Assembly (NCBI GenBank): GCA_022826885.1
Contig: JAJDUB010000059.1
Coordinates: 7,172 to 71,171, forward strand
Direction: 5' to 3'
DNA: 64,000 bases
Origin: Gammaproteobacteria bacterium
GTDB taxonomy: Bacteria > Pseudomonadota > Gammaproteobacteria > Eutrophobiales > Eutrophobiaceae
In this document: one piece after another, positions 3,487-15,700 of the stretch
Layout of the letters: each line of letters opens with the position of its first letter
Numbering within the stretch: the stretch's first letter is position 1
Translations under genes and position numbers: made by a program
The notes under the pieces: generated by a model
Seen by the model: the letters and a program-made list of their open reading frames with translations, nothing else
The model's database searches: none
Told to the model about the DNA's origin: nothing

Positions 3487-3600
3487 ACTATGCTCCTTAT
3501 GTGCATTTCTTCGAAATAGTTTAATATTGAACCGGTTGCTGAAAAGACAAGCTTACCGAGTCATAAATCCTCACCTGGCTCATATGTATGGAAATGATAC

Positions 3601-4016
3601 ATGAAACTGTCGAATCATTTACCAGTTCTTCTGTTTATTACCGGCGCGATTTGTGTTGGCTGTTCTCGGAAACCACAACAATCAACAAGCCAACCAAATA
3701 AGTTACTTCCTGCTGCTGAGCAGGCCGCACGACCCGGAAGTCAGACGGTGTGGTGATGAATGCCAGTCAACGTATCAATATCCATGATATCCTGGCTGTA
3801 CACACTATCTAATGGTGCACGGTTGATGGGTCATGATAATCTACTGGATAGTATCGAAGTCGGGAAACAGCCGACTTGGTTGTATTGAATGAGAACAAAG
3901 TTAATCTTGCGCAGAACGGACAGGCCGACAGGGTTGGAGAAACACAGGTGGACATGACAATATTCGATGGCAACGTAGCCTTCGACCTTGGACAAAGAGA
4001 TGCAGTTCCTCGTTGA
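3601..4016 (+). pseudogene. Remnant of a secreted/lipoprotein amidohydrolase-3 (YtcJ-like) gene: signal peptide joined to the C-terminal segment, two frameshifts
   Basis: ATG 3601 gives MKLSNHLPVLLFITGAICVGC (lipobox-like). With frameshifts near 3752, 3810 and 3870 the sequence reads SQRINIHDILAVHTI/NGARLMGHDNLLDSIEVGKQ/ADLVVLNEN...QVDMTIFDGNVAF, the typical amidohydrolase-3 C-terminus. The catalytic barrel is missing. Confidence 0.7.
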
Positions 4017-4042
4017 CATTTAATCCATGTTATGTACAAGAA

Positions 4043-4645
4043 ATGAATAAGTTATACGACAGAGAGGATGAACTAAAGAGACGCCTGAACGATTTTCTAT
4101 CTGGTCAGTTTAGTCTTGAGGAAAAGGACTACTATTCAAATTTGGATGAATCCGGTTTTCTAAAGCTAAAAGCTGTCCTAAGTGACATAAACAACATCAT
4201 TACAATGAAGGTCACCCTTTCTTTTGTCCACTGGTTGGCACAGAACCTGGACATGGCAAAGTCTGATGTGAGTAGTATGATTGAGAAGATTAAAGGTATG
4301 AAACCCAACACAAACGGATATGACATCGAGTTGGATGACCCTATTGAGCTTATCGCTGAAGTAAAGTGCAATGTCCCTATCAAGGAAGGAACTGTATATG
4401 GTTCCGCGCAGAAGAATGGGATTATCAAAGATATGGATGCGTTAATCGACGGAAAGAGCAAATCGCGAATGGACCCTCAACGCTGCCTAAAGTTCATGGT
4501 ATTCTTGGATACACCAGAGATCAGGAAAGCTACAGAACATCTATTCAATAATCTAAACCACCCTTCGACTATTGTCGAAGCATCTGATGTGGTTCGGTTT
4601 GACAGTAACAAAATCTATACCGTGTTCTTAGGGTTCGAGGCGTAA
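4043..4645 (+). CDS. Hypothetical protein with PD-(D/E)XK-like nuclease motif
   Basis: AT-rich 200-aa ORF containing NGYDIELDDPIELIAEVK (D...ExK spacing of restriction-endonuclease-like folds). Start chosen at ATG 4043. Confidence 0.6.
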   Translation: MNKLYDREDELKRRLNDFLSGQFSLEEKDYYSNLDESGFLKLKAVLSDINNIITMKVTLSFVHWLAQNLDMAKSDVSSMIEKIKGMKPNTNGYDIELDDPIELIAEVKCNVPIKEGTVYGSAQKNGIIKDMDALIDGKSKSRMDPQRCLKFMVFLDTPEIRKATEHLFNNLNHPSTIVEASDVVRFDSNKIYTVFLGFEA

Positions 4646-4737
4646 AATGATGTTTAAGGCACTTATTTCATTCAAAGATACTACTTTTTTGCTTGAAGTC
4701 GTGCGAAAAACTGATTGGCTAAACGAGGAGTTTTAGC

Positions 4738-5004
4738 GTGCCAACCATATCGATGTTTTACGGCATAATTATCAGAATGTATTTTGCACCTGGTGAGCAC
4801 CCTCCACCTCACTTTCATGTGTATTATTCTGAACATAAGGCAAGGGTTGATATTCGCACATGTGAAATAATTGATGGCAAGTTGCCAAAGAGGCAAACTA
4901 AGTTAGTTTTAGCGTGGGCAGAGCTTCATCAGGAAGATCTTTTGGCAAATTGGGAACTCGTCATGAACGGTGAAGAACCGTTTAAAATTCAACCGCTACA
5001 ATGA
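4738..5004 (+). CDS. DUF4160 family protein (putative toxin-antitoxin component)
   Basis: MPTISMFYGIIIRMYF...EHPPPHFHV...LAWAELHQEDLLANWE is the DUF4160 signature; GAGGAG RBS upstream of GTG. Confidence 0.85.
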   Translation: MPTISMFYGIIIRMYFAPGEHPPPHFHVYYSEHKARVDIRTCEIIDGKLPKRQTKLVLAWAELHQEDLLANWELVMNGEEPFKIQPLQ

Positions 5005-5014
5005 GGTAAAGTTA

Positions 5015-5275
5015 GTGAACCCGGCTGTAACATCAGTTGAATGTAAAGATGATTATCTTTTGTCAGTAGTTTTTGATAGTGGTGAGAGTGGGTTACTGGA
5101 TATGAAACCTTACTTGAATTTTGGAGTCTTTAAAAAAATTCAAGACCCGTGCAGATTCAAAACTGCTTATGTCTCTTTTGACACAATTGCGTGGGAGTCC
5201 GGCGCTGATCTTGCCCCTGAGTTTGTTTACAAAAACTGCAGCATAGTAAAGCAAGACTCTTCAGAAGGTGACTGA
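5015..5275 (+). CDS. DUF2442 family protein (partner of DUF4160)
   Basis: GTG 5015 after GAGGT; V...DDYLLSVVFDSGESGLLDMKPYL..GVF...TIAWESGADLAPEFVY matches DUF2442; directly downstream of DUF4160. Confidence 0.8.
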   Translation: MNPAVTSVECKDDYLLSVVFDSGESGLLDMKPYLNFGVFKKIQDPCRFKTAYVSFDTIAWESGADLAPEFVYKNCSIVKQDSSEGD

Positions 5276-5393
5276 CGACATCGCCGATTTTGGCTGTAAG
5301 GAGTATTCTTATCCGTAAGCTTGTCCCTTTTTTCAACGCTTCTTTGGAGTTTGATGGCGGCATTGAGGAGGAACCGATGCACCCGGCTGTAAT

Positions 5394-5855
5394 ATGAGAA
5401 TGTCATACTGGAATCACAGAGTAATCAGGAAGCGTCACACCGAAACAGAATCGGTGGCATATCAGGTTCACGAGGTTTATTACCACGAGAACGGCGCCAT
5501 TGAAGGTTGGACAGAAAAACCCGTCGCGCCTATGGGTGAAACGATTGAGGAACTGAGAGAAGATATAAGGTATTTTCTCCATGCGTTCCGTCGTCCAATT
5601 CTGGAAGAAAAAGAAACAGACGAAGGCTCAACTCTTATCCCCGACGATACGGACGATGCAATAAATGACGGCCATTATTTCGAACTCCTGGACCGAACGT
5701 ATGTAGCGTTGGATTACATTTACCAGTTTCTTGGCAGCCACCCGGTAGTAAGAAAAGACAAAACGTTACAAGACACGTACGAAAAAGCCGAAGAGGCCTT
5801 GGCTGAACTCTATCAACAGGCAGGTCGGCTGGAGTTTGACAGAGGTAGCAGCTAA
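5394..5855 (+). CDS. Hypothetical protein
   Basis: 153-aa ORF in the AT-rich islet with N-terminal YWNHRVIR...HEVYY..G...WTEKPV.P.GET.EEL pattern; function unknown. Confidence 0.65.
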   Translation: MRMSYWNHRVIRKRHTETESVAYQVHEVYYHENGAIEGWTEKPVAPMGETIEELREDIRYFLHAFRRPILEEKETDEGSTLIPDDTDDAINDGHYFELLDRTYVALDYIYQFLGSHPVVRKDKTLQDTYEKAEEALAELYQQAGRLEFDRGSS

Positions 5856-5912: not shown

Positions 5913-6827
5913 ATGAGCTATCAAACAGTCAAAGACAAGCTGGACAATGGCGAAATCGTTTTGCTGGACGGCGGCACCGGTTCCGAGATTGAGCGGCAGG
6001 GCGTTGAGATGAACGACCTGGCCTGGTGCGGTATCGCCCATGTGGATTACCCGGAGGTTGTGCGCCAGGTGCATGAGAGTTACATCCATGCCGGCGCCGA
6101 TGTAATTATCGCAAATACCTTCGGGACCGCTCCGCACGTGCTCAAGCGCCTGGGGCTGGAGGATCAGTTCGCGCAGGTCAACCAGTCTGCCGTAGCCGTG
6201 GCATTGGCGGCCCGAGACAACTGCGGCAGGGATGTGTGTGTCGCTGCTTCCATGTCCTCCATGCCGGCATTTGATACATTTGCCGTTCCGAAAACCGATG
6301 AGGTGAGGCAGGGTTTTGTCCGCCAGGCTGAGTTGCTGGCGGAAGCCGGCGCCGAACTGATTATCGCCGAGATGATGCGCGACGTGGATATCTCCGATAT
6401 GGTTATCTCTGCGGCCAGGGGAACGGGAATACCGGTATGGACGGGCTTCAGCGCCAGCAGGAACGACGCCGGCACGTTAATCAACTATGAGTCACCCGTG
6501 CGCGATGACGAGACCATGCCGTTCAGACGGATGGCGGAGGAAGTCCTCGGTATGGGCTGCGATGCCGCCGGAGTCATGCATTCCAGCGTCCATGATACCG
6601 GTCCGGCGCTGGCGGAATTGGGCGAGTTGTGGAACGGATCCATGTTCGCGTATGCGGAGAGCGGCCATTTCGTCCCGCCAAGCTGGAAGTTCGAGGATAT
6701 TATTTCCCCACAGGACTACCTGGGCTATGTAAAGCAATGGATCGGCCAGGGCGTGCAGGTGGTCGGCGGCTGTTGCGGCATGGGGCCGGAGCATATCAGG
6801 GCGCTGAACGAGAACCTGGCAGTTTGA
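5913..6827 (+). CDS. Homocysteine S-methyltransferase family protein
   Basis: LLDGGTGSE N-terminus, HESYIHAGADVIIANTF, C-terminal VGGCCGMGPEHI zinc-binding motif. Confidence 0.88.
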   Translation: MSYQTVKDKLDNGEIVLLDGGTGSEIERQGVEMNDLAWCGIAHVDYPEVVRQVHESYIHAGADVIIANTFGTAPHVLKRLGLEDQFAQVNQSAVAVALAARDNCGRDVCVAASMSSMPAFDTFAVPKTDEVRQGFVRQAELLAEAGAELIIAEMMRDVDISDMVISAARGTGIPVWTGFSASRNDAGTLINYESPVRDDETMPFRRMAEEVLGMGCDAAGVMHSSVHDTGPALAELGELWNGSMFAYAESGHFVPPSWKFEDIISPQDYLGYVKQWIGQGVQVVGGCCGMGPEHIRALNENLAV

Positions 6828-7865
6828 TCAGTCCCCGGCTGCAGTCTGCTCTTCGCGCAGCAGTTGCAGCAGCTTGCGGCGCGCCATTATCGCGCCGGTG
6901 TCGCCCTTGAGAACCAACGGCTCCAGGTCCCAAAAATCCTTACCCCCCATCATTGCCTGTTGCTGCGCGATCATCGGTTTGTCTTCATTTTCAAAGGCAT
7001 GAATGAAGCCTGAGCGCATCTGTTCAGTGAATTCCGGGTCGTTCAGGCGCGTTTCCCTGCCCACGGCCCAGAAATAGAATGTGCTGCCTGCCGTTTCCGG
7101 CGTCATCAGGTGCAGTGACGGCGCTGCCTTCGCCGTTTCCCGCGTTCCACCGGGTTCGTTGAGGTAAGGGATCAGTAACATGTTGGCCGGGGGCGTCCAG
7201 CGGATGTCCGTCCAGAAGTTCTGCCTTCTGCCAACGACGTCAAAGGTGGCGGCCATGACGTCGGAGACGTAATCGTTCGGGTGTTCGATATGGCACCACA
7301 CGGCTGTGCCGTCAGAGCGGTACTGACGCTGTCCGTCGATAAACGCAGGAGCGCTGAGGCCGCTGTGAATGTACTCGGCGTGCGACAGGTCGAGGATGTT
7401 GTCAGTGAAAAGCTGGTAGTTGCCGGCGCCGTGGATGACGCCCCTGATGATTTCCCATTTGCTCTCGTCCATGAATGAAAAATCAGGCACCAGCGCGGGG
7501 TCTGCCTGTACTGCATCGCCGAACCAGACCCAGGCCAGTCCGTGCCGTTCACGCACCGGCCAGGTCGGCAGTGAAACGTCCGGGATGTGTCCCTGGTCAT
7601 GCGGGTTGTGTACGCACCGGCCATCTCCGCTGAAGCGCAACCCGTGGTAGGGACATTGCAGACTGCCGTCTTCTGCCACCTTCCCCTGCGCCAATGACGC
7701 GAAACGGTGTGGGCACCGTCCGCCCACTGCGTAAGCCTTGCCGGTGTTGTCCCGGAACAGCGCGACATGCTGGTCGAGCAGCACGCGCCCCACCGGACCT
7801 GCATCAAGTTCGTCCGACCATGCGCTGGCGTACCAGCAATTCAGCAGGTAGGACGCAGTTGTCAT
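6828..7865 (-). CDS. Rieske non-heme iron monooxygenase, VanA/DdmC-like (O-demethylase type)
   Basis: CPHR...CPYHG Rieske ligands, DNILDLSHAEYIH mononuclear Fe motif, ENEDKPM carboxylate. Confidence 0.88.
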   Translation of the reverse strand: MTTASYLLNCWYASAWSDELDAGPVGRVLLDQHVALFRDNTGKAYAVGGRCPHRFASLAQGKVAEDGSLQCPYHGLRFSGDGRCVHNPHDQGHIPDVSLPTWPVRERHGLAWVWFGDAVQADPALVPDFSFMDESKWEIIRGVIHGAGNYQLFTDNILDLSHAEYIHSGLSAPAFIDGQRQYRSDGTAVWCHIEHPNDYVSDVMAATFDVVGRRQNFWTDIRWTPPANMLLIPYLNEPGGTRETAKAAPSLHLMTPETAGSTFYFWAVGRETRLNDPEFTEQMRSGFIHAFENEDKPMIAQQQAMMGGKDFWDLEPLVLKGDTGAIMARRKLLQLLREEQTAAGD

Positions 7866-7876
7866 CGCTTATCAGG

Positions 7877-10075
7877 CTAGAAACTCGTCCCCACGGAGAC
7901 TTTGATCGAGCGCAACGGGGTATTGGTTTCGAAGGTCTCCACGAAAGGATCCGGTCCTGGGAAACCGAAATCCGCGCCGATTGTGTTGGTCACGTTCTCC
8001 GCCACGATATTCAGAAACCAGGGTGATGAATCGCTGCTGAGGCGCCCGGTCAGGGCCAGTGAGGTAAACGCATTGTCATACAACCCTTCGCTGAGCTGGT
8101 TGAACTTGGACGAGCGATGCTTCAGGGTACCGCCGATGGCAACGGACCAGTCTCCGAACACGCGCTGCTCCCAGTCCGCATTGAACGCCACTGACACGCG
8201 GGGCGATTGCGCCAGGCGCTCGTTCCTACCCTTGTCCTCGGCATCGGCATAAGCGCCTGCCGCGCTCACCCGAAAGCTGTCGGTCACCTGCCAGGTCAAC
8301 AGGCCGTCGACACCTGTCGAACGGGACCTGTCGTTGCTGGAGATGAACTCACCGGTAAAGAGCAGTTGCTGCAGACCGAAGACGTCGATGTGGAACACCG
8401 CCACGTCAAGCTGCACGCGGCCGTCCAGCAGGCTCGATTTTATGCCGGCTTCGTAGCTGTTGGCGCGCTCGTCATCCACAAACGCATCCCGCTGCGGATT
8501 GCCGGTACCCAAGGCAGGATCCAGCGCTATGGAATTGAACTCGCCGTAGCCACCGGCCTTTCCGCCGCGTGCGAAAGATGCGTACACCATTACGTCCGGC
8601 GTCAGGTCGTACTGTAACGACACACTGCCGCTGACCAGGTCGTCAGTGACGTTATCGAGTCTCTGATAGGGGAACGGCGCCTGAATTACCGCATTCCACA
8701 GGGTGAACGGCGGGCGGTTGGTGCGTCCGAAATGCACTTTCTTCTTTTCGTGGGTGAAACGCAGGCCCAGGTTGACCCGGAATTGTTCAGTCAAGCTATA
8801 GTTGGCCTGGCCGAACACCGAGTAGGCGGTGGTTTTCTGGGCAAAGGTGTTGGTGTAGGAACCGTTGAATATCTGACCGCTGATCGGAACCGGCGGAGGC
8901 GGAAAGTCGGGGATGCCGAACACGCTGTCCCACAACATGTCCCATTCGCTGTGGAAGAAGAACAGTCCGGCCAGGTAATCCAGGCGCTCGCCCCCGTTGG
9001 AGGCCAGGCGCAGTTCCTGCTGAACCTGCTCGTAGTCTTCGGTACGGATAAAGAGGCTTGCATCCTTGTTGTCAAAATCGAAGTCCGCGTAGTTTGTGTG
9101 ATCGGATGTCGCGTATGACGTGATCGAAGTCAGTGTTGCTGCACCAAAATCATAATTCAACGTCCCGGTGGCTATGTGGGCCTGCAGGTGGGTCAGGTCG
9201 TCGCCGTCAACCAGACGCGGGTCCGAACTGTAGGAGGCCTTGGTGTCGTCAAACCTCGATTCACCCAGGTCCGGGCCGGCACCGAGACCCAGCGCGGACA
9301 GGCCAGGCCGGGTTATCTGGGTCGGCAGACCGACGCGCCTGTTGTCGGTGTACTGATGACTGATCAGCGCACTGAACCGGCCTGCGGGCTCCCAGAGCAG
9401 GGAGGTGCGAATGCCGGCATCCCGGTCCTCCGGCACGTCTTTCCCGGTAGTGACGTTGTGTACCCAGCCATTCAGGTCGGACCACTTGCCGGCGATGCGC
9501 AAGGCCAGGGTATCGTCCACCGGCAGGTTCACAACGCCTTCGCCGAACCAGCCGCCGTTCTGCGCTTCAAGCCCGAACTCCACGTCACCGCCGAACTCCT
9601 GTTCCGGCCTGTTGTTGACAACCGAGATACCGCCGAGTGTGGTGTTCTTGCCGAGCAGGGTGCTCTGCGTGCCCTTGATCAACTCAACCCGCTGCACATC
9701 GAACAGGGTATGCCCGTACAGGCGCACGTTGCCCAGGAACGCGCCGTCCACGAACATGCCGATGGAGTTATCGAAAGCGACGTTGCCTGCCTGGGTGCCG
9801 ATGCCGCGGAAGGTCACCCCGGGGCTGTCGCTGGGCGGTCGTGCAAATTCGAAACTGGGAACGATATTGGCAAGCTCGCCAATCATGTCCACCTGCCGCC
9901 TGTCCAGGTTTTCTTCACTGAATACAGTAATCGAGATGGGCACGTCCTGCAGGGATTCCTCACGCTTTTGCGCCGTTACGACGACTTCTTCGAGCATACC
10001 CGTTCCCTGTGTGAATCCCGTTACGCACACCAGCGCCGCCGATACCCCGGCGATGATACGTGTCAGTTTGTTCAT
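7877..10075 (-). CDS. TonB-dependent outer membrane receptor
   Basis: Signal peptide, LEEVVVTAQKRE TonB-box region, RVELIKGTQSTLLGKN plug motif, C-terminal Phe. Confidence 0.92.
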   Translation of the reverse strand: MNKLTRIIAGVSAALVCVTGFTQGTGMLEEVVVTAQKREESLQDVPISITVFSEENLDRRQVDMIGELANIVPSFEFARPPSDSPGVTFRGIGTQAGNVAFDNSIGMFVDGAFLGNVRLYGHTLFDVQRVELIKGTQSTLLGKNTTLGGISVVNNRPEQEFGGDVEFGLEAQNGGWFGEGVVNLPVDDTLALRIAGKWSDLNGWVHNVTTGKDVPEDRDAGIRTSLLWEPAGRFSALISHQYTDNRRVGLPTQITRPGLSALGLGAGPDLGESRFDDTKASYSSDPRLVDGDDLTHLQAHIATGTLNYDFGAATLTSITSYATSDHTNYADFDFDNKDASLFIRTEDYEQVQQELRLASNGGERLDYLAGLFFFHSEWDMLWDSVFGIPDFPPPPVPISGQIFNGSYTNTFAQKTTAYSVFGQANYSLTEQFRVNLGLRFTHEKKKVHFGRTNRPPFTLWNAVIQAPFPYQRLDNVTDDLVSGSVSLQYDLTPDVMVYASFARGGKAGGYGEFNSIALDPALGTGNPQRDAFVDDERANSYEAGIKSSLLDGRVQLDVAVFHIDVFGLQQLLFTGEFISSNDRSRSTGVDGLLTWQVTDSFRVSAAGAYADAEDKGRNERLAQSPRVSVAFNADWEQRVFGDWSVAIGGTLKHRSSKFNQLSEGLYDNAFTSLALTGRLSSDSSPWFLNIVAENVTNTIGADFGFPGPDPFVETFETNTPLRSIKVSVGTSF

Positions 10076-10137
10076 TCTACCTTCCTCCTGTTACATAAAA
10101 TCAATAAATCCGGACGGAAACTTCAGGTTCCTCAATG

Positions 10138-11190
10138 TTATGCAGTCGCGCTTGCCGCGCCGGCGGACTGCTCCGCAAACAGCTTTTTCATGATCCTGCG
10201 CGCCCTCATGGAATGGGTATCCGCTGAAACCAGTACCTCGCGGGGCTGTTGCTGGCGCGCGAGCATGTTCTCAACTGCTTCCACCGCTTCGATGTCCTCA
10301 TCGATGACAGCCGCAAAGACACTGTTCACCGTATCCGTTACTTCCCGGCTGTCGTGGGCAAAGGTGCGGGACCAGGCAACGAGGTAATTCGTTGATGTTG
10401 CCGTCGCAGGCGTAACCGCATGGCAGACCCGGTACTGTGCGATGGCGTCGCCGCCGGGATTGATGAACTTCTCGCGCGCAACATGCAGGTTGGGCGGGTA
10501 GAAGTCTATCAACACTTCACGGTCCAACGGCCCTTCCGTACCCAGCGCGTCCTTGAAAAAACCGGTCAGTTTTTCATTGGGAATCATCCGCAGGCCCCGC
10601 AGAAATCTATCGTGCTCGGAAATTTCCACCCGGGTGGACGCCACCGAGTCAGTCCCGATAGTGCCCGGGTGCAGGTACGACAGGTGCGATATGTCTGTGA
10701 GGTTCTCATGCAGCAATTGTGCGCGGCAGTTAAGCGTGTTCGTCAGCGCAGGCAGCGCGAGCCAGCCCGGTTCGGTCAGGCGGATCTCATCATGGTCCGG
10801 AATCAGGTCCGGATCCGCGCGCGTCTGGTCCCCGATCCAGATCCACAACCACTCCCATTTTTCCACCAGTGCATAAGTTTGCACCCGGCACACGTCCGGA
10901 ATGGTTTCCTGGCTGGGAATCCTGACGCAGTTACCGTCCGGACCGTATTGAAAACCGTGGTAGCCGCATTCCAGCACGTCGCCGCGCACCCGGCCCTTGC
11001 CCAGCGGGAAGCTGCGGTGCGGGCAGCGCCCGTGCATGGCGATGGCTTTTCCCTGCGTATCGCGGTAAAACACCACCGGTTCTCCGCAGATCCACCTCTC
11101 GAACGGTTTATCGGCTGTGACCTCGCTGCTCCAGGCCGCGACGTACCATTGATTCTCGAGATAATCCTCGTCTTCAGCGAACGGCCACAT
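10138..11190 (-). CDS. Second VanA/TsaM-like Rieske monooxygenase
   Basis: CPHR...CGYHG, ENLTDISHLSYLH, DEDIEAVE. Start set at ATG 11190 after a GGGGAG RBS. Confidence 0.88.
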   Translation of the reverse strand: MWPFAEDEDYLENQWYVAAWSSEVTADKPFERWICGEPVVFYRDTQGKAIAMHGRCPHRSFPLGKGRVRGDVLECGYHGFQYGPDGNCVRIPSQETIPDVCRVQTYALVEKWEWLWIWIGDQTRADPDLIPDHDEIRLTEPGWLALPALTNTLNCRAQLLHENLTDISHLSYLHPGTIGTDSVASTRVEISEHDRFLRGLRMIPNEKLTGFFKDALGTEGPLDREVLIDFYPPNLHVAREKFINPGGDAIAQYRVCHAVTPATATSTNYLVAWSRTFAHDSREVTDTVNSVFAAVIDEDIEAVEAVENMLARQQQPREVLVSADTHSMRARRIMKKLFAEQSAGAASATA

Positions 11191-11250
11191 AGTGTCTCTC
11201 TCCCCGGGAGTGCAAGCTTTTCTTTGTATATAACGGGCGCATTGCGTCAC

Positions 11251-12591
11251 TCATGCCGACACTGCAGCAGCCTGTTCCGCATCGGAGTAATCGACCAGGC
11301 GTGATTTGTAAACTTCCCTTGGCAACGTCCCGTACGGCACGAGTTGTATATCGGTCGCGACCAGCAGGCGCTGCCGTACCTGGTCCGAGATTCGCTGTTG
11401 CAGGTTGACGGTCTGTGCCGCACCGTTTTCTCCCAGTTCGACCAGCACCGGCAACGGCTTTGTCTGCCTGACCCCCTTTTCTTTCGGCCTTACCTGTATC
11501 ACGCCCGATACGTCAGGTGTGAACTCGTTCAGCACGCTGCGCAGCGCGGTCGGAAACAGGTTGACGCCGCGCACGATGAGCATATCGTCCGTGCGTCCCA
11601 CGCAGCGTATCCTGGGGCCGGTCCGGCCCAGCGGGTTGGGTTCCATGTTGACGACGACGTGGTCGCGGCTGCGGAAACGCAATAACGGCATCGCCTCCCG
11701 TTGCAACGCGGTGTAGACCAGTTCACCTTCAGCGCCGTCTTCCCAGGCGCGCGGGGAACCGGTTTCCGGGTCGATGAGTTCAACATGGGCGAAGCCGCGG
11801 GCCATGAAGTGCATCCCCTTACCGTCATCGTCCTCGGCCCAGGCCGAAAGCGTTATGTCCCCTATGCCCATGGATTCGCGCACCTTGCAGCCGAATGCGC
11901 CCTCCAGGCGGCCGCGGATCAGCGGGTCGCCGCCGCCCGGTTCCCCCGCGGTAATCATGTTCCTGAGACCCAGGCCCAGGGTATTAATAGCGCGCTCCCT
12001 GCACCAGTCAATCAGGTACAGCCCGTACGAAGGAGTACAGCTTATACCCGTGGCATTCAACCTCTGGATGGCGCCGACCAGGCGTTCGGTATTCCCGGTG
12101 CCTATCGGGATTACCGTGCAGCCCAACTTGTCGAAACCATCGTAAACCGCGCCTGCAACGAACGGCCCGGCATTAAATCCGACAACGATGCGCTGAGCTT
12201 TTGCAAACCCGGCCGCGGTGTAACCGCGGGCAGCGTTGGTTGCGTAGCCTTCCAGGTCGTTGCGGGTGAGGCCGATCAGGCACGGCACGCCGCTGGTGCC
12301 GCTGGTATTGTAGACCCGCCGCAACTTGTCCGGGGAACAGGCCAGGTGATCGCCGAACGGGGGCGCAGCGGCCTGGGTCGCCCGTATTTCGTCTTTTTCC
12401 GTGAAAGGGAGACCGGTGATATCATCCAGATCACCCACATCCGCAGGACCGGAGAAGCCCGCCTCATCCAGCTTATGCCGGTAAAAGGCGGAATGCTCGA
12501 ATAAATACCGGATTTGCCGGCGATAACTTTCCCGGTCCAGGTCAAATTGCTCTGCCACCGGGCGGGTTTCAATCTCTGCGTCGTGCATCAT
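11251..12591 (-). CDS. Phenylacetate-CoA ligase (PaaK-like) family protein
   Basis: LPFTEKDEIR, NTSGTSG P-loop, AGEPGG, LLRFRSRD, GRTDDMLIVRGVNLFP. Confidence 0.88.
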   Translation of the reverse strand: MMHDAEIETRPVAEQFDLDRESYRRQIRYLFEHSAFYRHKLDEAGFSGPADVGDLDDITGLPFTEKDEIRATQAAAPPFGDHLACSPDKLRRVYNTSGTSGVPCLIGLTRNDLEGYATNAARGYTAAGFAKAQRIVVGFNAGPFVAGAVYDGFDKLGCTVIPIGTGNTERLVGAIQRLNATGISCTPSYGLYLIDWCRERAINTLGLGLRNMITAGEPGGGDPLIRGRLEGAFGCKVRESMGIGDITLSAWAEDDDGKGMHFMARGFAHVELIDPETGSPRAWEDGAEGELVYTALQREAMPLLRFRSRDHVVVNMEPNPLGRTGPRIRCVGRTDDMLIVRGVNLFPTALRSVLNEFTPDVSGVIQVRPKEKGVRQTKPLPVLVELGENGAAQTVNLQQRISDQVRQRLLVATDIQLVPYGTLPREVYKSRLVDYSDAEQAAAVSA

Positions 12592-12648
12592 GGCGCGGGC
12601 TTTCCGTGTTGGTTCTTACTTGTTGTGTCCACGATTTTTGTTCCGGGT

Positions 12649-13056
12649 TTACCGGTGGTATGCCTCGTTATTGGGGGTATGGTCACCCGCCAGCCAACGT
12701 TCAAGTTCGCTACGGGCCTTGAGACGTTGCTCCTCGTTTATCTGATCGACGTCTTCGTGGTCAACAGTAAATTCAATTATCAACTGCGCCGGGTCAAGCA
12801 CGTACAGGGAATAGCAGTATCCGTGGTTCAGAATGTACATGTCCGGCTCCTTGTATCCTGCAGCCTCCAGCCGGTCGCGTATTCCGGCCTGGGTTTCCTG
12901 GTCTACTTTCATGGCGATATGGCGAAAACCGGAAAGCGGCAATTCCGGACCGAATTCTTCCTGGTCCTCCTCGTAGAATTTTCTTACGGCTTCCATGTCC
13001 CTGGTAACATGCGCGTTGTGGTGAAGACGGCTTGATATTTTCAGTTCTGTATTCAT
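12649..13056 (-). CDS. VOC/glyoxalase family protein, apparently with an internal in-frame deletion
   Basis: RLHHNAHVTRDMEAVRKFYE joined directly to EDQEEFGPELP...RHIAMKV...HGYCYSLYVLDPAQLIIEF; the beta-strand segment usually between these parts is absent. Confidence 0.7.
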   Translation of the reverse strand: MNTELKISSRLHHNAHVTRDMEAVRKFYEEDQEEFGPELPLSGFRHIAMKVDQETQAGIRDRLEAAGYKEPDMYILNHGYCYSLYVLDPAQLIIEFTVDHEDVDQINEEQRLKARSELERWLAGDHTPNNEAYHR

Positions 13057-13129
13057 TTACAACTACCTCCCGGTTCCCGTTTATACACATTCAGCGCAGT
13101 CGGATTCTGGTAAAATGTATATTAGTATT

Positions 13130-13161
13130 TTCGAATAACGAAGTCAAATTCGATAATCGAA
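13130..13161. promoter_or_regulatory. Tandem PcaR/PcaU/PobR-type (IclR) operator boxes in the divergent promoter
   Basis: TTCGATAATCGAA (13149-13161, perfect palindrome around a central A) and a degenerate copy TTCGAATAACGAA (13130-13142). These resemble the established GTTCGATAATCGCAC PcaR box; an IclR gene is 1.7 kb away. Confidence 0.75.
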
Positions 13162-13268
13162 ATTTTATTTCACAACATGATGACAGGGCGTCAGGGTGAT
13201 TTGATTGTGTTATAGTGATTTTTCAGGTCCCCTGCTTGACCTTAACATTCTCAATTCGGAGTGATCTT

Positions 13269-14039
13269 ATGAGCGACAATGACAAGGCGCACCCCACGAC
13301 GGCGATTTGCGGTTTTGACGCAGAGAACATCCTGGTTCGCGGCAAGAATCTCGTAAGCGATCTTATGGGAAATTATTCATTCACGGAATTGCTGCTGCTG
13401 CAGGCGCTAGGAAAGGAACCGACCAAAGCACAGTCCCGGATTGTCGACGCGGTGCTGGTAACCATCATGGAACACGGCCTGGTACCTTCCGCAATCGCGA
13501 CCAGGCTGACTCATCACGGCGCGCCTGAATCATTTCAGGGTGCAGTGGTTGCCGGCCTTCTGGGTGTTGGCGATCGCTATGCCGGCACGGCCGGTGACTG
13601 TGGCGTATTGCTTGAAGAAATCGTCGAAGCGCCGCTGGCGGAACGGCAAGCCACGGCAATCGAGAGGGTCAGGTCACTCCGGCAGATGCGCCGACCTGTT
13701 CCGGGTTTCGGTCATCCCATTCACCATGGCGGCGACCCGCGCGTCGGAAGACTGTTGCAGATAGCCAGGGAAGCGGGAGTGAGCGGCCAGTACCTCAACG
13801 CACTCGACACGCTCGAAGCCGGTGTACAGGAAGTCATTAACAAATCCATTGTCATGAACGTCAGCGCAGCCATAGCGGCGGTACTTGCCGAAGCCGGAGT
13901 GCCTGCCTCCCTGATGCGCGGTATCGTGCTGACCGCTCGCTGTGCTGGACTCGTCGGGCACCTCTTTGAGGAAATGAACAACCCAATCGGCCATGATCTC
14001 TGGTTCGCGGCAAAGGAACGTATTGCCTACCAGGACTGA
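13269..14039 (+). CDS. Citryl-CoA lyase / citrate synthase-like protein
   Basis: LVTIMEHGLVPSAIATR, PVPGFGHPIH...DPR, MNVSAAIA, RCAGLVGH. Confidence 0.82.
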   Translation: MSDNDKAHPTTAICGFDAENILVRGKNLVSDLMGNYSFTELLLLQALGKEPTKAQSRIVDAVLVTIMEHGLVPSAIATRLTHHGAPESFQGAVVAGLLGVGDRYAGTAGDCGVLLEEIVEAPLAERQATAIERVRSLRQMRRPVPGFGHPIHHGGDPRVGRLLQIAREAGVSGQYLNALDTLEAGVQEVINKSIVMNVSAAIAAVLAEAGVPASLMRGIVLTARCAGLVGHLFEEMNNPIGHDLWFAAKERIAYQD

Positions 14040-14071
14040 TCCGGGCTTAAACCACGCCAGGTAACAGAACC

Positions 14072-14887
14072 ATGTGGATCGATGTCGATGCAGGACGACT
14101 GTTCGTCAGGCATGAAGGTGAAGGTGCCCCTTTGTTGCTCATGCATGGATGGACCCTGGACCAGCGCATGTTTCAACCACAGATGCCCCGTCTCAGTGAG
14201 CGATTTCACGTCATCAGTTTCGATCGGCGCGGGTTTGGCCGGTCCGATGCGACTCCCGACCTGGACCTGGAGCTTGACGACCTGGATAGAATCGCAGATG
14301 CCTTGTCTCTTGACACCCTGCACCTGCTCGGCATGTCCCAGGGTGGGCGTCTGGCGATGCGTTATGCCGTAACAAGGCCGCAACGCCTGCGTTCCCTGGT
14401 TCTGCAAGGCGCCGTGGTTGACGGCCTGGATATTGACGGACCGGAACACGAACGCATCCCGTTTCCTGAATACGCTGACCTGGTAAGCGCAGGAAAAATC
14501 GATGTGATGCGCCGACGCTGGCTCGGGCACCCGGTGCTGGCGCTCGGCCCGGGACATGATGACGAGCAACGACTGCTGAATGAAATACTGGATGATTATA
14601 CCGGCGCGGATTTACTTGCTTTCTCACCGGACAAGTTAGCGACTTCCCTGGACGTGCTTGGGAAACTTGCCCGGTTCCATGCCCCCACTCTTATACTCAC
14701 CGGCGCAAGCGAAACCGGCAGGCTGAAGGCGCACGCACAAAAACTGCTTGAGGTAATCCCTGACAGCCGGGAGGTCATTTTTGAGCACAGCGGCCACCTG
14801 AGTAATCTCACCGAACCGGAGTTGTACAACGAACAGGTAATTCTCTTTTGTGCCGGCGTAGATGAAGCGGCGTCCTTAACGGAATGA
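14072..14887 (+). CDS. Alpha/beta hydrolase (PcaD/enol-lactonase-like)
   Basis: LMHGW, DRRGFGRS, GMSQGG nucleophile elbow, SGHLSNL catalytic His. Confidence 0.85.
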   Translation: MWIDVDAGRLFVRHEGEGAPLLLMHGWTLDQRMFQPQMPRLSERFHVISFDRRGFGRSDATPDLDLELDDLDRIADALSLDTLHLLGMSQGGRLAMRYAVTRPQRLRSLVLQGAVVDGLDIDGPEHERIPFPEYADLVSAGKIDVMRRRWLGHPVLALGPGHDDEQRLLNEILDDYTGADLLAFSPDKLATSLDVLGKLARFHAPTLILTGASETGRLKAHAQKLLEVIPDSREVIFEHSGHLSNLTEPELYNEQVILFCAGVDEAASLTE

Positions 14888-15700
14888 TGCGCTTCTGATC
14901 GAGTGTACAAGGATCGGGTAGCGGCGCAATTCCTGTTCGATTTTCTTAGCCGCCGTCATGAGGTGGGGCAACCGGGTCTCGATCATCTCCTCCTGGTTGA
15001 CGCGGGTTGTTGCGGTTGAACAGTTTATCGCAGCGAGTATCTCACCATCATTGTCGAATACGGGCACGGCGACGGATATGATGCCGTAGTCCAGTTCATC
15101 CTGGGTGGATGTGAAACCCTGGCGCCTGCACCTGTTCAGGACTTTTCGGAGTTTCACCCTGGATATAACTGTCTTGTCGGTAAGTTTCTGAGGTTTAATC
15201 CGGGCAAGATAGTCGTTAATAAAGGACTCGGAGTGGTGTGCAACAATGACGCGGCCAAGAGACGTTGCATAAGCGGGGAAGCGGGTGCCGATCCCCGCAT
15301 CCAGCCTGATCATACGGTTCGTCGATACATGAACCAGGTACAGGATATCCAGGTGGGATAGTACAGCCAGTGAAGAACTGTCCCCGGTGTTGTCCCGAAC
15401 GTCCTGGAGGTGCGGACGCGCTATTTCTTCCAGGTTAACTGATTCAAGGAATGCTGACGCGAAACCCATCACTTCGGGCGTTAACAGAAACAATTTCCCT
15501 CTTTTCCCGACATAACCCAATTCAACCAGGGTATTCAGGCAGCGCCTGGCTACAGCGGGGTTCAGGCCCGTTGCTGAAGCGACTTCGCTTAATGTCATTT
15601 CCGGGTTGTCCCTGGTAAACGTTCGCAGTACGGACAGTCCCCTGGCCAGTGTGCTGAGATACTCGCCGTCTTTTTTAGGTTTATCTTCTTTATTATTCAT
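14876..15700 (-). CDS. IclR family transcriptional regulator (PcaR/PobR-like)
   Basis: STLARGLSVL HTH start, RRCLNTLVELGYV, PAYATSLGRV, ELDYGIISVAVPV. Confidence 0.9.
   Translation of the reverse strand: MNNKEDKPKKDGEYLSTLARGLSVLRTFTRDNPEMTLSEVASATGLNPAVARRCLNTLVELGYVGKRGKLFLLTPEVMGFASAFLESVNLEEIARPHLQDVRDNTGDSSSLAVLSHLDILYLVHVSTNRMIRLDAGIGTRFPAYATSLGRVIVAHHSESFINDYLARIKPQKLTDKTVISRVKLRKVLNRCRRQGFTSTQDELDYGIISVAVPVFDNDGEILAAINCSTATTRVNQEEMIETRLPHLMTAAKKIEQELRRYPILVHSIRSASFR

Follow-up and report, generated by a model that had tools for sequence, protein, structure and literature searches.

In a 64,000-nt stretch of the Gammaproteobacteria bacterium assembly GCA_022826885.1 (contig JAJDUB010000059.1, positions 7,172-71,171 of the forward strand; hereafter, the window), eight genes at 6828-15700 encode two VanA-type Rieske oxygenases (VanA1 and VanA2), a TonB-dependent receptor, a PaaK-family acid-CoA ligase, a small VOC-fold protein, a short citrate-synthase-fold (CS-fold) protein, an alpha/beta hydrolase and an IclR-type regulator. 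We tentatively interpret this locus as one lineage's partly eroded version of an IclR-controlled island that is widespread and would serve to take up and break down an exogenous aromatic carboxylic acid. The acid would most likely carry methoxy or methyl substituents and be degraded through a hydroquinone/quinone (homogentisate-like) intermediate. The source genome (G000) is a 3.4-Mb assembly, and matching DNA was found in sponge metagenome runs. Gene families were assigned by hidden Markov model (HMM) searches against Pfam and NCBIfam, which, together with the listing of open reading frames (ORFs), bore out the eight genes, their places and their order as given in the original prediction for this DNA.

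We compared the window proteins with 80 loci fetched around orthologues of the ligase and found that a core, comprising the genes for the IclR regulator, hydrolase, CS-fold protein, VOC protein and ligase, is co-conserved in ~40 genomes of Woeseiaceae, Halieaceae and other groups. Usually, the regulator gene is followed on one strand by the hydrolase and CS-fold genes, and the divergent strand carries genes for a receptor, the VOC protein (180 aa), a WrbA-type NAD(P)H:quinone oxidoreductase, the ligase and one or two MetE-type methyltransferases without the folate domain (core-MetE). Of the loci outside the sponge lineage, 43 have sufficient flanking sequence; the VOC gene is present in all 43, the CS-fold gene in 40, the receptor in 39, the IclR gene in 38, the hydrolase and WrbA genes in 35 each, and the first and second core-MetE genes (MetE1 and MetE2) in 33 and 21, respectively; a VanA1-like gene occurs in one. 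Where the sponge lineage has VanA1 and its receptor, most relatives have another receptor, WrbA and one or two core-MetE proteins, which retain the H-x-C / E / C zinc site and are compatible with methyl transfer to a thiol. The synteny check suggested with the original prediction thus came out positive for the core, which is co-conserved with IclR and a common operator; a lack of co-conservation elsewhere, which the prediction had counted against itself, was not seen for the core and largely holds for the arrangement of two VanA genes plus receptor. No published pathway with this gene set was found in a limited literature, in agreement with the view that the combination had not been characterised, although such a result is not proof of absence; searches of the literature on the gene combination, on MetE-type demethylases and on 9u42, a structure discussed below, returned nothing relevant.

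The regulator has the full HTH_IclR and IclR_C architecture and orthologues (42-85% identity) flanking the cluster in ~40 loci. Its score of 258.5 bits against TIGR02431 lies just below the cut-off of 284.75, so that the predicted PcaR type stands as far as architecture is concerned, and falls slightly short at the threshold of the PcaR/PcaU/PobR subfamily. The region between the divergent operons holds the palindromes TTCGATTATCGAA and TTCGTTATTCGAA exactly 19 bp apart (13130-13161), an arrangement that occurs once in the 64-kb window, with 0 expected by chance. Twin TTCG-N5-CGAA palindromes at the same 19-bp spacing recur in ~30 related loci with an IclR gene and are absent from all nine examined loci without one. 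The twin operator overlaps a promoter-like site for the operon with the VOC and ligase genes, recognised as a consensus match only; promoter and terminator scans of the locus gave results at chance level. Collectively, this is good comparative evidence that the regulator would control both divergent operons through the twin palindromes. The synteny of the core across dozens of genomes, together with a twin operator that has no second copy in the window, shows that the gene arrangement is not due to chance.

Both oxygenases score well over the Pfam cut-offs (PF00355 and PF19112) and have intact Rieske CxH..CxxH and DxxHx4H iron motifs (residues 76-98 and 186-194 in VanA1, 51-74 and 159-167 in VanA2); VanA1, read from the probable start near 11190, would be 350 aa long, the same as its relatives. 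The VanA1 model (predicted local distance difference test, pLDDT, 89) has template modelling (TM) scores of 0.88-0.90 to dicamba monooxygenase (DdmC) and guaiacol O-demethylase, and the solved structures nearest to VanA2 are those of DdmC (209 bits) and guaiacol O-demethylase (7qwt; 198 bits). Identity of the two proteins to these enzymes is 28-29%, and neither matched an equivalog model in NCBIfam. The nearest structures, taken together with the methyltransferase-type core-MetE in the same slot of most relatives, would fit a demethylation step. The predicted demethylation of a methoxylated aromatic thus retains its footing in aryl O-demethylases as nearest structures and in the core-MetE genes, and the proposed double step is weakened by the dispensability of VanA2. 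Candidate reductases are located on other contigs of the genome (C68 and C41), and the Paraburkholderia orthologue of VanA1 has an adjoining one. Of the 18 VanA_C matches in the genome, six lie on contig C63; as a separate observation, it has only a few Fer2-type reductase candidates, which suggests an electron supply shared among the oxygenases.

VanA2 is variably present among strains and dispensable: it is missing from a 97%-identical genome (L012) and present in another relative (L094; ligase 82% identical) in the order VanA1-receptor-VanA2. Because L094 carries the same order, the absence of VanA2 from L012 represents a loss, and a strain-specific insertion was rejected on the same ground. 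A recent duplication was also rejected, the best paralogue in the genome being only 35% identical. In DNA run X4, the contig sequence departs from the window at 6862, just inside the 3' end of VanA2, and at 7875, its 5' boundary, and the VanA2-bearing contig has a low depth; these break points and the depth fit a location of VanA2 on a minority haplotype.

VanA1 orthologues (55-62% identity) were found in three distant genomes. In Polymorphobacter (L093), VanA1 lies near genes for a CoA-transferase, IclR (57%), a common-type receptor (47%), a flavodoxin-like reductase, VOC (60%) and a hydrolase, and is followed by a second receptor, which is 55% identical to that of the window. In Paraburkholderia (L092), it adjoins genes for VOC, a dedicated Fer2 reductase and a hydrolase, with the CoA-transferase and CS-fold genes a few kb away, whereas in L100, a 2.3-Mb contig, it adjoins IclR, CoA-transferase and CS-fold genes, a second VanA gene and a receptor, constituting a natural VOC-less version with two VanA genes. 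The CoA-transferases of the three genomes are 60-66% identical to one another; the models scoring best with the family III CoA-transferases that replace the ligase are those of oxalate, glutarate and mesaconate enzymes. These VanA1 neighbourhoods therefore suggest that two swaps recur, namely, CoA-transferase for ligase and core-MetE for Rieske oxygenase. The set of two VanA genes, TonB receptor, IclR, CS-fold gene and CoA-activating enzyme thus recurs in the unrelated L100. The more specific prediction, two VanA genes flanking a dedicated receptor, describes the arrangement present here; in this form it is specific to the sponge lineage and includes a dispensable gene. In Polymorphobacter, the place between IclR and receptor where the CS-fold gene is expected (L093:1953-3316) is taken by a pair of neighbouring ORFs, of 177 and 277 aa, with no match in Pfam or NCBIfam. 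LeuCD, encoded beside the CS-fold/CoA-transferase pair of Paraburkholderia, is a genuine isopropylmalate dehydratase by score and was not used as pathway evidence.

The window receptor has an N-terminal signal-like sequence, a LEEVVVTA TonB box, and Plug and barrel domains scoring 53 and 126 bits, respectively. With only 24% identity to its counterpart in the common cluster, it is a different receptor; the genome encodes ~45 TonB-receptor paralogues.

The VOC gene bears a mark of erosion. The window ORF has no Pfam match and encodes 135 aa, compared with 178-184 aa in 17 orthologues, owing to an in-frame deletion of residues 30-74, a stretch kept in all 17 orthologues compared and including the nearly invariant His55. 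In the model of an orthologue (pLDDT 88), the first beta-alpha-beta-beta-beta module has four strands, three of which fall within the missing stretch; the intact orthologues have the paired beta-alpha-beta-beta-beta fold and the window copy does not. The deletion is real and widespread in the species: the metagenome-assembled genome (MAG) L012, which is 97% identical, has it, and so do DNA contigs without gaps that come from two further studies. L094 carries a full-length VOC gene. In another relative (L016), the receptor gene is reduced to a 106-nt remnant, and six relatives keep only the CS-fold and ligase genes between the same flanks, where the operator is absent. The window locus is an eroding copy, and these loci trace a stepwise loss of the pathway in a symbiont.

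The best match of the intact VOC orthologues in both sequence and fold is 9u42, 'Homogentisate 1,2-dioxygenase from Acinetobacter' (E 1.3e-10, TM 0.71-0.75), followed by glyoxalases and FosB-type enzymes, and the VOC gene adjoins that of the WrbA-type quinone reductase in most loci. We asked whether carriers of the island are, as a rule, without the cupin homogentisate dioxygenase. Three Lentisalinibacter genomes (G003, G017 and G019) encode HPPD and maleylacetoacetate isomerase over curated cut-offs; neither a cupin homogentisate dioxygenase nor the variant of the NOR5-3 type was found in G003 and G017, and in G019 a search with PF04209 only found no cupin enzyme. Lentisalinibacter may thus use a non-cupin ring-cleavage enzyme, a pattern that lends weak support to a homogentisate-type role of the VOC protein. 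HPPD and maleylacetoacetate isomerase without the cupin dioxygenase are confined to Lentisalinibacter and some Woeseiaceae MAGs, and a general absence of the cupin enzyme from island carriers was rejected, because HmgA is encoded in the sponge lineage and in several others and NOR5-3 has a divergent form. The operon of gamma proteobacterium NOR5-3 (L097:6508-9344) encodes a divergent 389-aa HgmA-like protein, a fumarylacetoacetase-family hydrolase and a maleylacetoacetate isomerase; the HgmA-like protein scores 20.8 bits with HgmA_C, just under the Pfam cut-off, and is missed by the genome-wide PF04209 search.

With 226 bits, the ligase does not reach the cut-off of 646.3 of the PaaK equivalog TIGR02155, and its best matches in the PDB are PaaK1 (179 bits) and 2-hydroxyisobutyryl-CoA synthetase (170 bits). 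It belongs to a tight orthologue group (64-82% identity) spanning Woeseiaceae, Halieaceae, Porticoccaceae, Oceanospirillaceae, Polyangiaceae and Planctomycetota MAGs. A prediction of a complex between the ligase and the CS-fold protein obtained no support, which says nothing either way on binding. The hydrolase, predicted to be PcaD-like, scores only 87.4 bits with TIGR02427 (cut-off 255.85) and is instead nearest to aryl esterases and perhydrolases among the solved structures (70-74 bits); with its GMSQG nucleophile elbow, it may be an esterase, a lactonase or a C-C hydrolase.

The CS-fold protein scores 298.8 bits with NF004868 (cut-off 193), 82.7 bits with PF00285 and 114 bits with Hydrogenobacter Ccl (6hxp); a look-up in the ESM Atlas returned only 'citrate synthase family' clusters. 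Its residues were assigned by alignment with Ccl of Hydrogenobacter, citrate synthase of Thermus and the module of ATP-citrate lyase (ACLY), as well as from an alignment of 48 family members, with the mapping checked against the numbering of T. acidophilum citrate synthase (His222, His262, Arg271 and Asp317; PMC4601594). The equivalents of the oxaloacetate-binding His238, His320 and Arg329 are retained, with EHG and GFGH near-invariant and DPR present in 42 of the 48 members. The equivalent of His274 of pig citrate synthase, the residue polarising the enolate of acetyl-CoA, is replaced by Tyr in 46 members (GDRYAG in place of GxxHGG) and by Ile or Val in two distant ones, and the equivalent of Asp375, the 'critical active-site base', by Ser in 45 (N[VI]S in place of NVD) and by Asn in L100. 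The corresponding Asp of ACLY, D1026, has been proposed to act as the general base, and the D1026A variant lacks activity (PMC10115795). As judged from these alignments, the chemistry of the family cannot be the canonical citryl-CoA lyase mechanism. The database name 'citryl-CoA lyase' therefore overstates what is known of the protein, the catalytic His and Asp being replaced family-wide; what stands of the same label in the original prediction is the membership in the HMM subfamily and the retention of the three binding residues, and what falls is the His274/Asp375 pair.

From these elements, we propose a route in three parts: a demethylation front end, a middle for hydroquinone/homogentisate-like ring cleavage with VOC protein, quinone reductase and hydrolase, and a CoA-dependent back end consisting of the ligase or transferase and the CS-fold protein. 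IclR would bind the twin palindromes; what is observed is that the motif is conserved and accompanies the regulator gene. The TonB receptor would import the substrate. VanA1, joined by VanA2 where present, may then O-demethylate or hydroxylate the substrate, as the nearest structures suggest, using a reductase encoded elsewhere; in most other bacteria, this slot is filled by one or two Zn-dependent core-MetE methyltransferases and the WrbA quinone reductase. In intact relatives, the small VOC protein would act as a dioxygenase and open the ring, by its likeness to the VOC-type homogentisate 1,2-dioxygenase, and the alpha/beta hydrolase would cleave the ring-opened compound at an ester, lactone or C-C bond. 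Finally, a CoA thioester may be formed by the PaaK-family ligase, which a family III CoA-transferase replaces in some genomes, and the CS-fold protein would process this thioester by non-canonical chemistry. The window version would thus combine a Rieske front end with a broken middle; with the VOC step lost and VanA2 optional, the island here would run a shortened route or be on its way out. On a bolder and, in our estimate, unlikely extension, the island family would be an undescribed marine pathway in which a methoxylated aryl-acetate or benzoquinone-acetate is imported and demethylated (by the Rieske enzymes, or by core-MetE onto homocysteine, yielding methionine), its ring is opened by the VOC protein, and the fission product passes to a new unit of ligase and Tyr/Ser CS-fold protein, which performs new chemistry on a CoA ester; candidate substrates would include homogentisate or pyomelanin precursors and O-methylated tyrosine-derived sponge metabolites.

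Several observations weigh against our reading of the locus as an eroded aromatic-acid island, in which every chemical step is an inference. No Fer2- or VanB-type reductase gene lies within 6828-15700. The window VOC protein is probably inactive, and the identity of the VOC proteins to 9u42 is only 23%. Island-carrying Luminiphilus genomes have neither HPPD nor HmgA, and NOR5-3 has its own divergent HgmA-FAH-MaiA operon, so that the island is not simply the homogentisate pathway of its hosts. The ligase is equally close to the aliphatic 2-hydroxyisobutyrate ligase, with which it has the QAAxPPFGD motif in common, and to PaaK; that the aromatic acid itself is converted to its CoA thioester is therefore not established, and on this point the predicted CoA route is not supported. 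The CS-fold protein is without the His/Asp pair needed for Claisen/retro-Claisen chemistry. Moreover, since several close relatives retain the ligase and CS-fold genes alone, this pair can apparently function without an aromatic-ring enzyme.

The last point is the starting point for a rival explanation that we consider rather unlikely, in which the cluster consists of two neighbouring units with separate functions. One, made up of the ligase and CS-fold protein and perhaps a homocysteine methyltransferase (the PF02574 protein at 5913-6827 in this genome, core-MetE in others), would act on a small aliphatic acid; a tertiary hydroxy-acid, a citramalate-like acid and a methyl-donor acid are candidates. 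The other, VanA1-receptor-VanA2, would be an unrelated module for aromatic demethylation and uptake. The six two-gene relatives with the same flanking genes would be accounted for in this way, as would the resemblance of the ligase to 2-hydroxyisobutyryl-CoA synthetase as much as to PaaK, its replacement elsewhere by CoA-transferases of the oxalate, glutarate and mesaconate kinds, the intact Zn-thiolate sites of core-MetE, which are suited to methyl transfer to homocysteine, and the difference of the window receptor and VanA genes from those of the common cluster. However, ~40 loci have the ligase and CS-fold genes conserved together with those for VOC, hydrolase and IclR under a single operator, the VanA1 orthologues recur by CS-fold, CoA-transferase, IclR, VOC and hydrolase genes in the three distant genomes, and the PF02574 gene is a conserved flank in the sponge lineage only, being absent from 43 of the 43 other loci.

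It is less probable still that the locus is a non-functional relic, disappearing by reductive evolution in a sponge symbiont, so that its gene order has no physiological meaning. Apart from that of the VOC protein, each ORF is full length and has its catalytic or cofactor motifs intact, the operator is intact, and the reduced relatives keep the ligase at 78-91% and the CS-fold protein at 71-85% identity, which indicates selection. These features have to be reconciled with the 45-residue VOC deletion in this assembly, in L012 and in the contigs of two other studies, the strain-variable VanA2, the receptor remnant of L016 and the progressive loss among relatives down to two genes; for the first of these, L100 provides a natural VOC-less version with two VanA genes. 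The literal model of the original prediction, in which a poly-methoxylated aromatic acid is thioesterified by the ligase and demethylated twice as its CoA ester, a true citryl-CoA-type lyase then splitting the side chain or the ring product, can draw on the two O-demethylase-like oxygenases, the two core-MetE genes of many relatives and a CS-fold score above the NF004868 'citryl-CoA lyase' cut-off, but is very improbable in view of the Tyr and Ser replacements throughout the family, the dispensable second oxygenase, a PaaK equivalog score of 226 against 646 and an action of oxygenases on CoA esters for which there is no supporting evidence.

Positions of the genes and of the putative operator in the window.
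Feature	Position	Strand	Assignment
VanA2	6828-7865	minus	Rieske + VanA_C; VanA-type Rieske mono-oxygenase, probably aryl O-demethylase
TonB receptor (TBDRb)	7877-10075	minus	Plug + barrel, signal peptide, TonB box; paired with VanA1
VanA1	10138-11250	minus	Rieske + VanA_C; probable start Met ~11190
PaaK-family adenylate-forming acid-CoA ligase (LIG)	11251-12591	minus	TIGR02155 226 bits, below cut-off
VOC-fold remnant	12649-13056	minus	135 aa, 45-residue in-frame deletion
Putative IclR operator	13130-13161	no strand	two TTCG-N5-CGAA palindromes, divergent promoter region
CS-fold protein (short, 'citryl-CoA-lyase-like')	13269-14039, ORF open from 13215	plus	NF004868
Alpha/beta serine hydrolase	14072-14887	plus	Abhydrolase_1, GMSQG elbow
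IclR regulator, PcaR/PcaU/PobR type	14876-15700	minus	HTH_IclR + IclR_C

The genes of the minus-strand run are separated by gaps of roughly 10-60 nt, and the genes from VOC through VanA2 appear compatible with a single operon; the IclR gene is convergent with that of the hydrolase. Contigs from the RNA libraries X17 and X18 (90-97% identity) cover portions of the receptor and VanA1 genes, the junction of ligase and VOC, and the CS-fold and hydrolase genes, with none seen on VanA2 or IclR; such contigs do not prove transcription and their gaps prove nothing, and we draw no claim on expression from them. Housekeeping or unrelated genes flank the cluster on both sides, with an acyltransferase, a HAD phosphatase and glyS/glyQ on one, and a PF02574 homocysteine methyltransferase gene, an AT-rich islet, and genes for an alcohol dehydrogenase and a thiolase on the other. 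The PF02574 gene (homocysteine S-methyltransferase, 5913-6827, plus strand) abuts VanA2 stop codon to stop codon and flanks the ligase side in all members of the sponge lineage, including those with only the ligase and CS-fold genes; its presence next to a cluster that elsewhere contains core-MetE genes could be a coincidence or a functional link. The AT-rich islet (3528-5828, 40-45% GC) is a variable spot amid conserved flanks, with ~940 nt of other sequence in its place in the 97%-identical L012. Two variants of the cluster elsewhere contain additional genes. In a relative with a ~81% identical ligase (L010:2981-6979 and L011:3119-7132), a gene for a ~1330-aa protein with M10 peptidase, Calx-beta and haemolysin-type calcium-binding domains is inserted between those for IclR and the hydrolase, and in a Congregibacter MAG (L044:90-4408), an extra receptor, a 324-aa protein without a family match and a VanA1-like oxygenase (37%) are encoded directly upstream of a complete common-type cluster.

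The island is common in Woeseiaceae and Halieaceae, two families that abound in marine sediments and coastal waters, and also occurs in sponge symbionts; knowledge of its substrate would give a function to a recurrent set of receptor and enzymes in marine carbon turnover. An apparent swap in one pathway slot would place O2-dependent Rieske demethylases and folate-domain-less MetE-type methyltransferases in equivalent positions, and a CS-fold family that is annotated everywhere as 'citryl-CoA lyase' is, by its residues, unable to use the textbook mechanism. The VOC proteins may represent a second family of homogentisate-type ring-cleavage enzymes in genomes without the cupin enzyme. Finally, the locus in this genome documents stepwise pathway loss in a symbiont.

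Compared with known systems, the locus is a variant within the known kinds of aromatic catabolic clusters. VanA1 and VanA2 resemble DdmC (3gb4/3gke), guaiacol O-demethylase (7qwt) and VanAB in their Rieske and VanA_C domains and in their intact [2Fe-2S] and mononuclear-iron motifs; unlike in the van operon or with DdmC, however, no VanB- or DdmA-type reductase gene adjoins them, and they sit instead with a TonB receptor, a CoA ligase and a CS-fold gene. The ligase has the fold type and length of PaaK and of the 2-hydroxyisobutyrate-CoA ligase HCL (2y27, 6hdw) and has both QAAxPPFGD and GRTxPR motifs in common with HCL, but it lies far under the PaaK equivalog cut-off, forms an orthologue group of its own and has no paa ring-epoxidase genes nearby. 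Similarly, the CS-fold protein has the short citrate synthase C-terminal fold of Ccl (6hxp) and the CS-homology module of ACLY, and its gene, like that of Ccl, is paired with one for an ATP-dependent enzyme forming CoA thioesters. The partner of Ccl is the succinyl-CoA-synthetase-like CcsAB, whereas here it is a PaaK-type ligase or family III CoA-transferase in the setting of a catabolic island, and the pair for acetyl-CoA enolisation is replaced by Tyr and Ser in the CS-fold protein. With the beta-ketoadipate clusters governed by PcaR, PcaU and PobR, the locus shares the IclR subfamily, the position of the regulator gene at the cluster edge and palindromic operators in the divergent promoter, but it has no pca genes, its hydrolase is not PcaD and its regulator falls just under the subfamily cut-off. 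The intact VOC orthologues (~180 aa) resemble 9u42 and are, in addition, encoded near WrbA and, across the divergent promoter region, the alpha/beta hydrolase; the window copy is 45 residues short, and the cluster adds the ligase, the CS-fold protein, the receptor and the demethylation genes. The MhqR regulon of Bacillus subtilis likewise brings together VOC hydroquinone dioxygenases, a carboxylesterase and quinone reductases.

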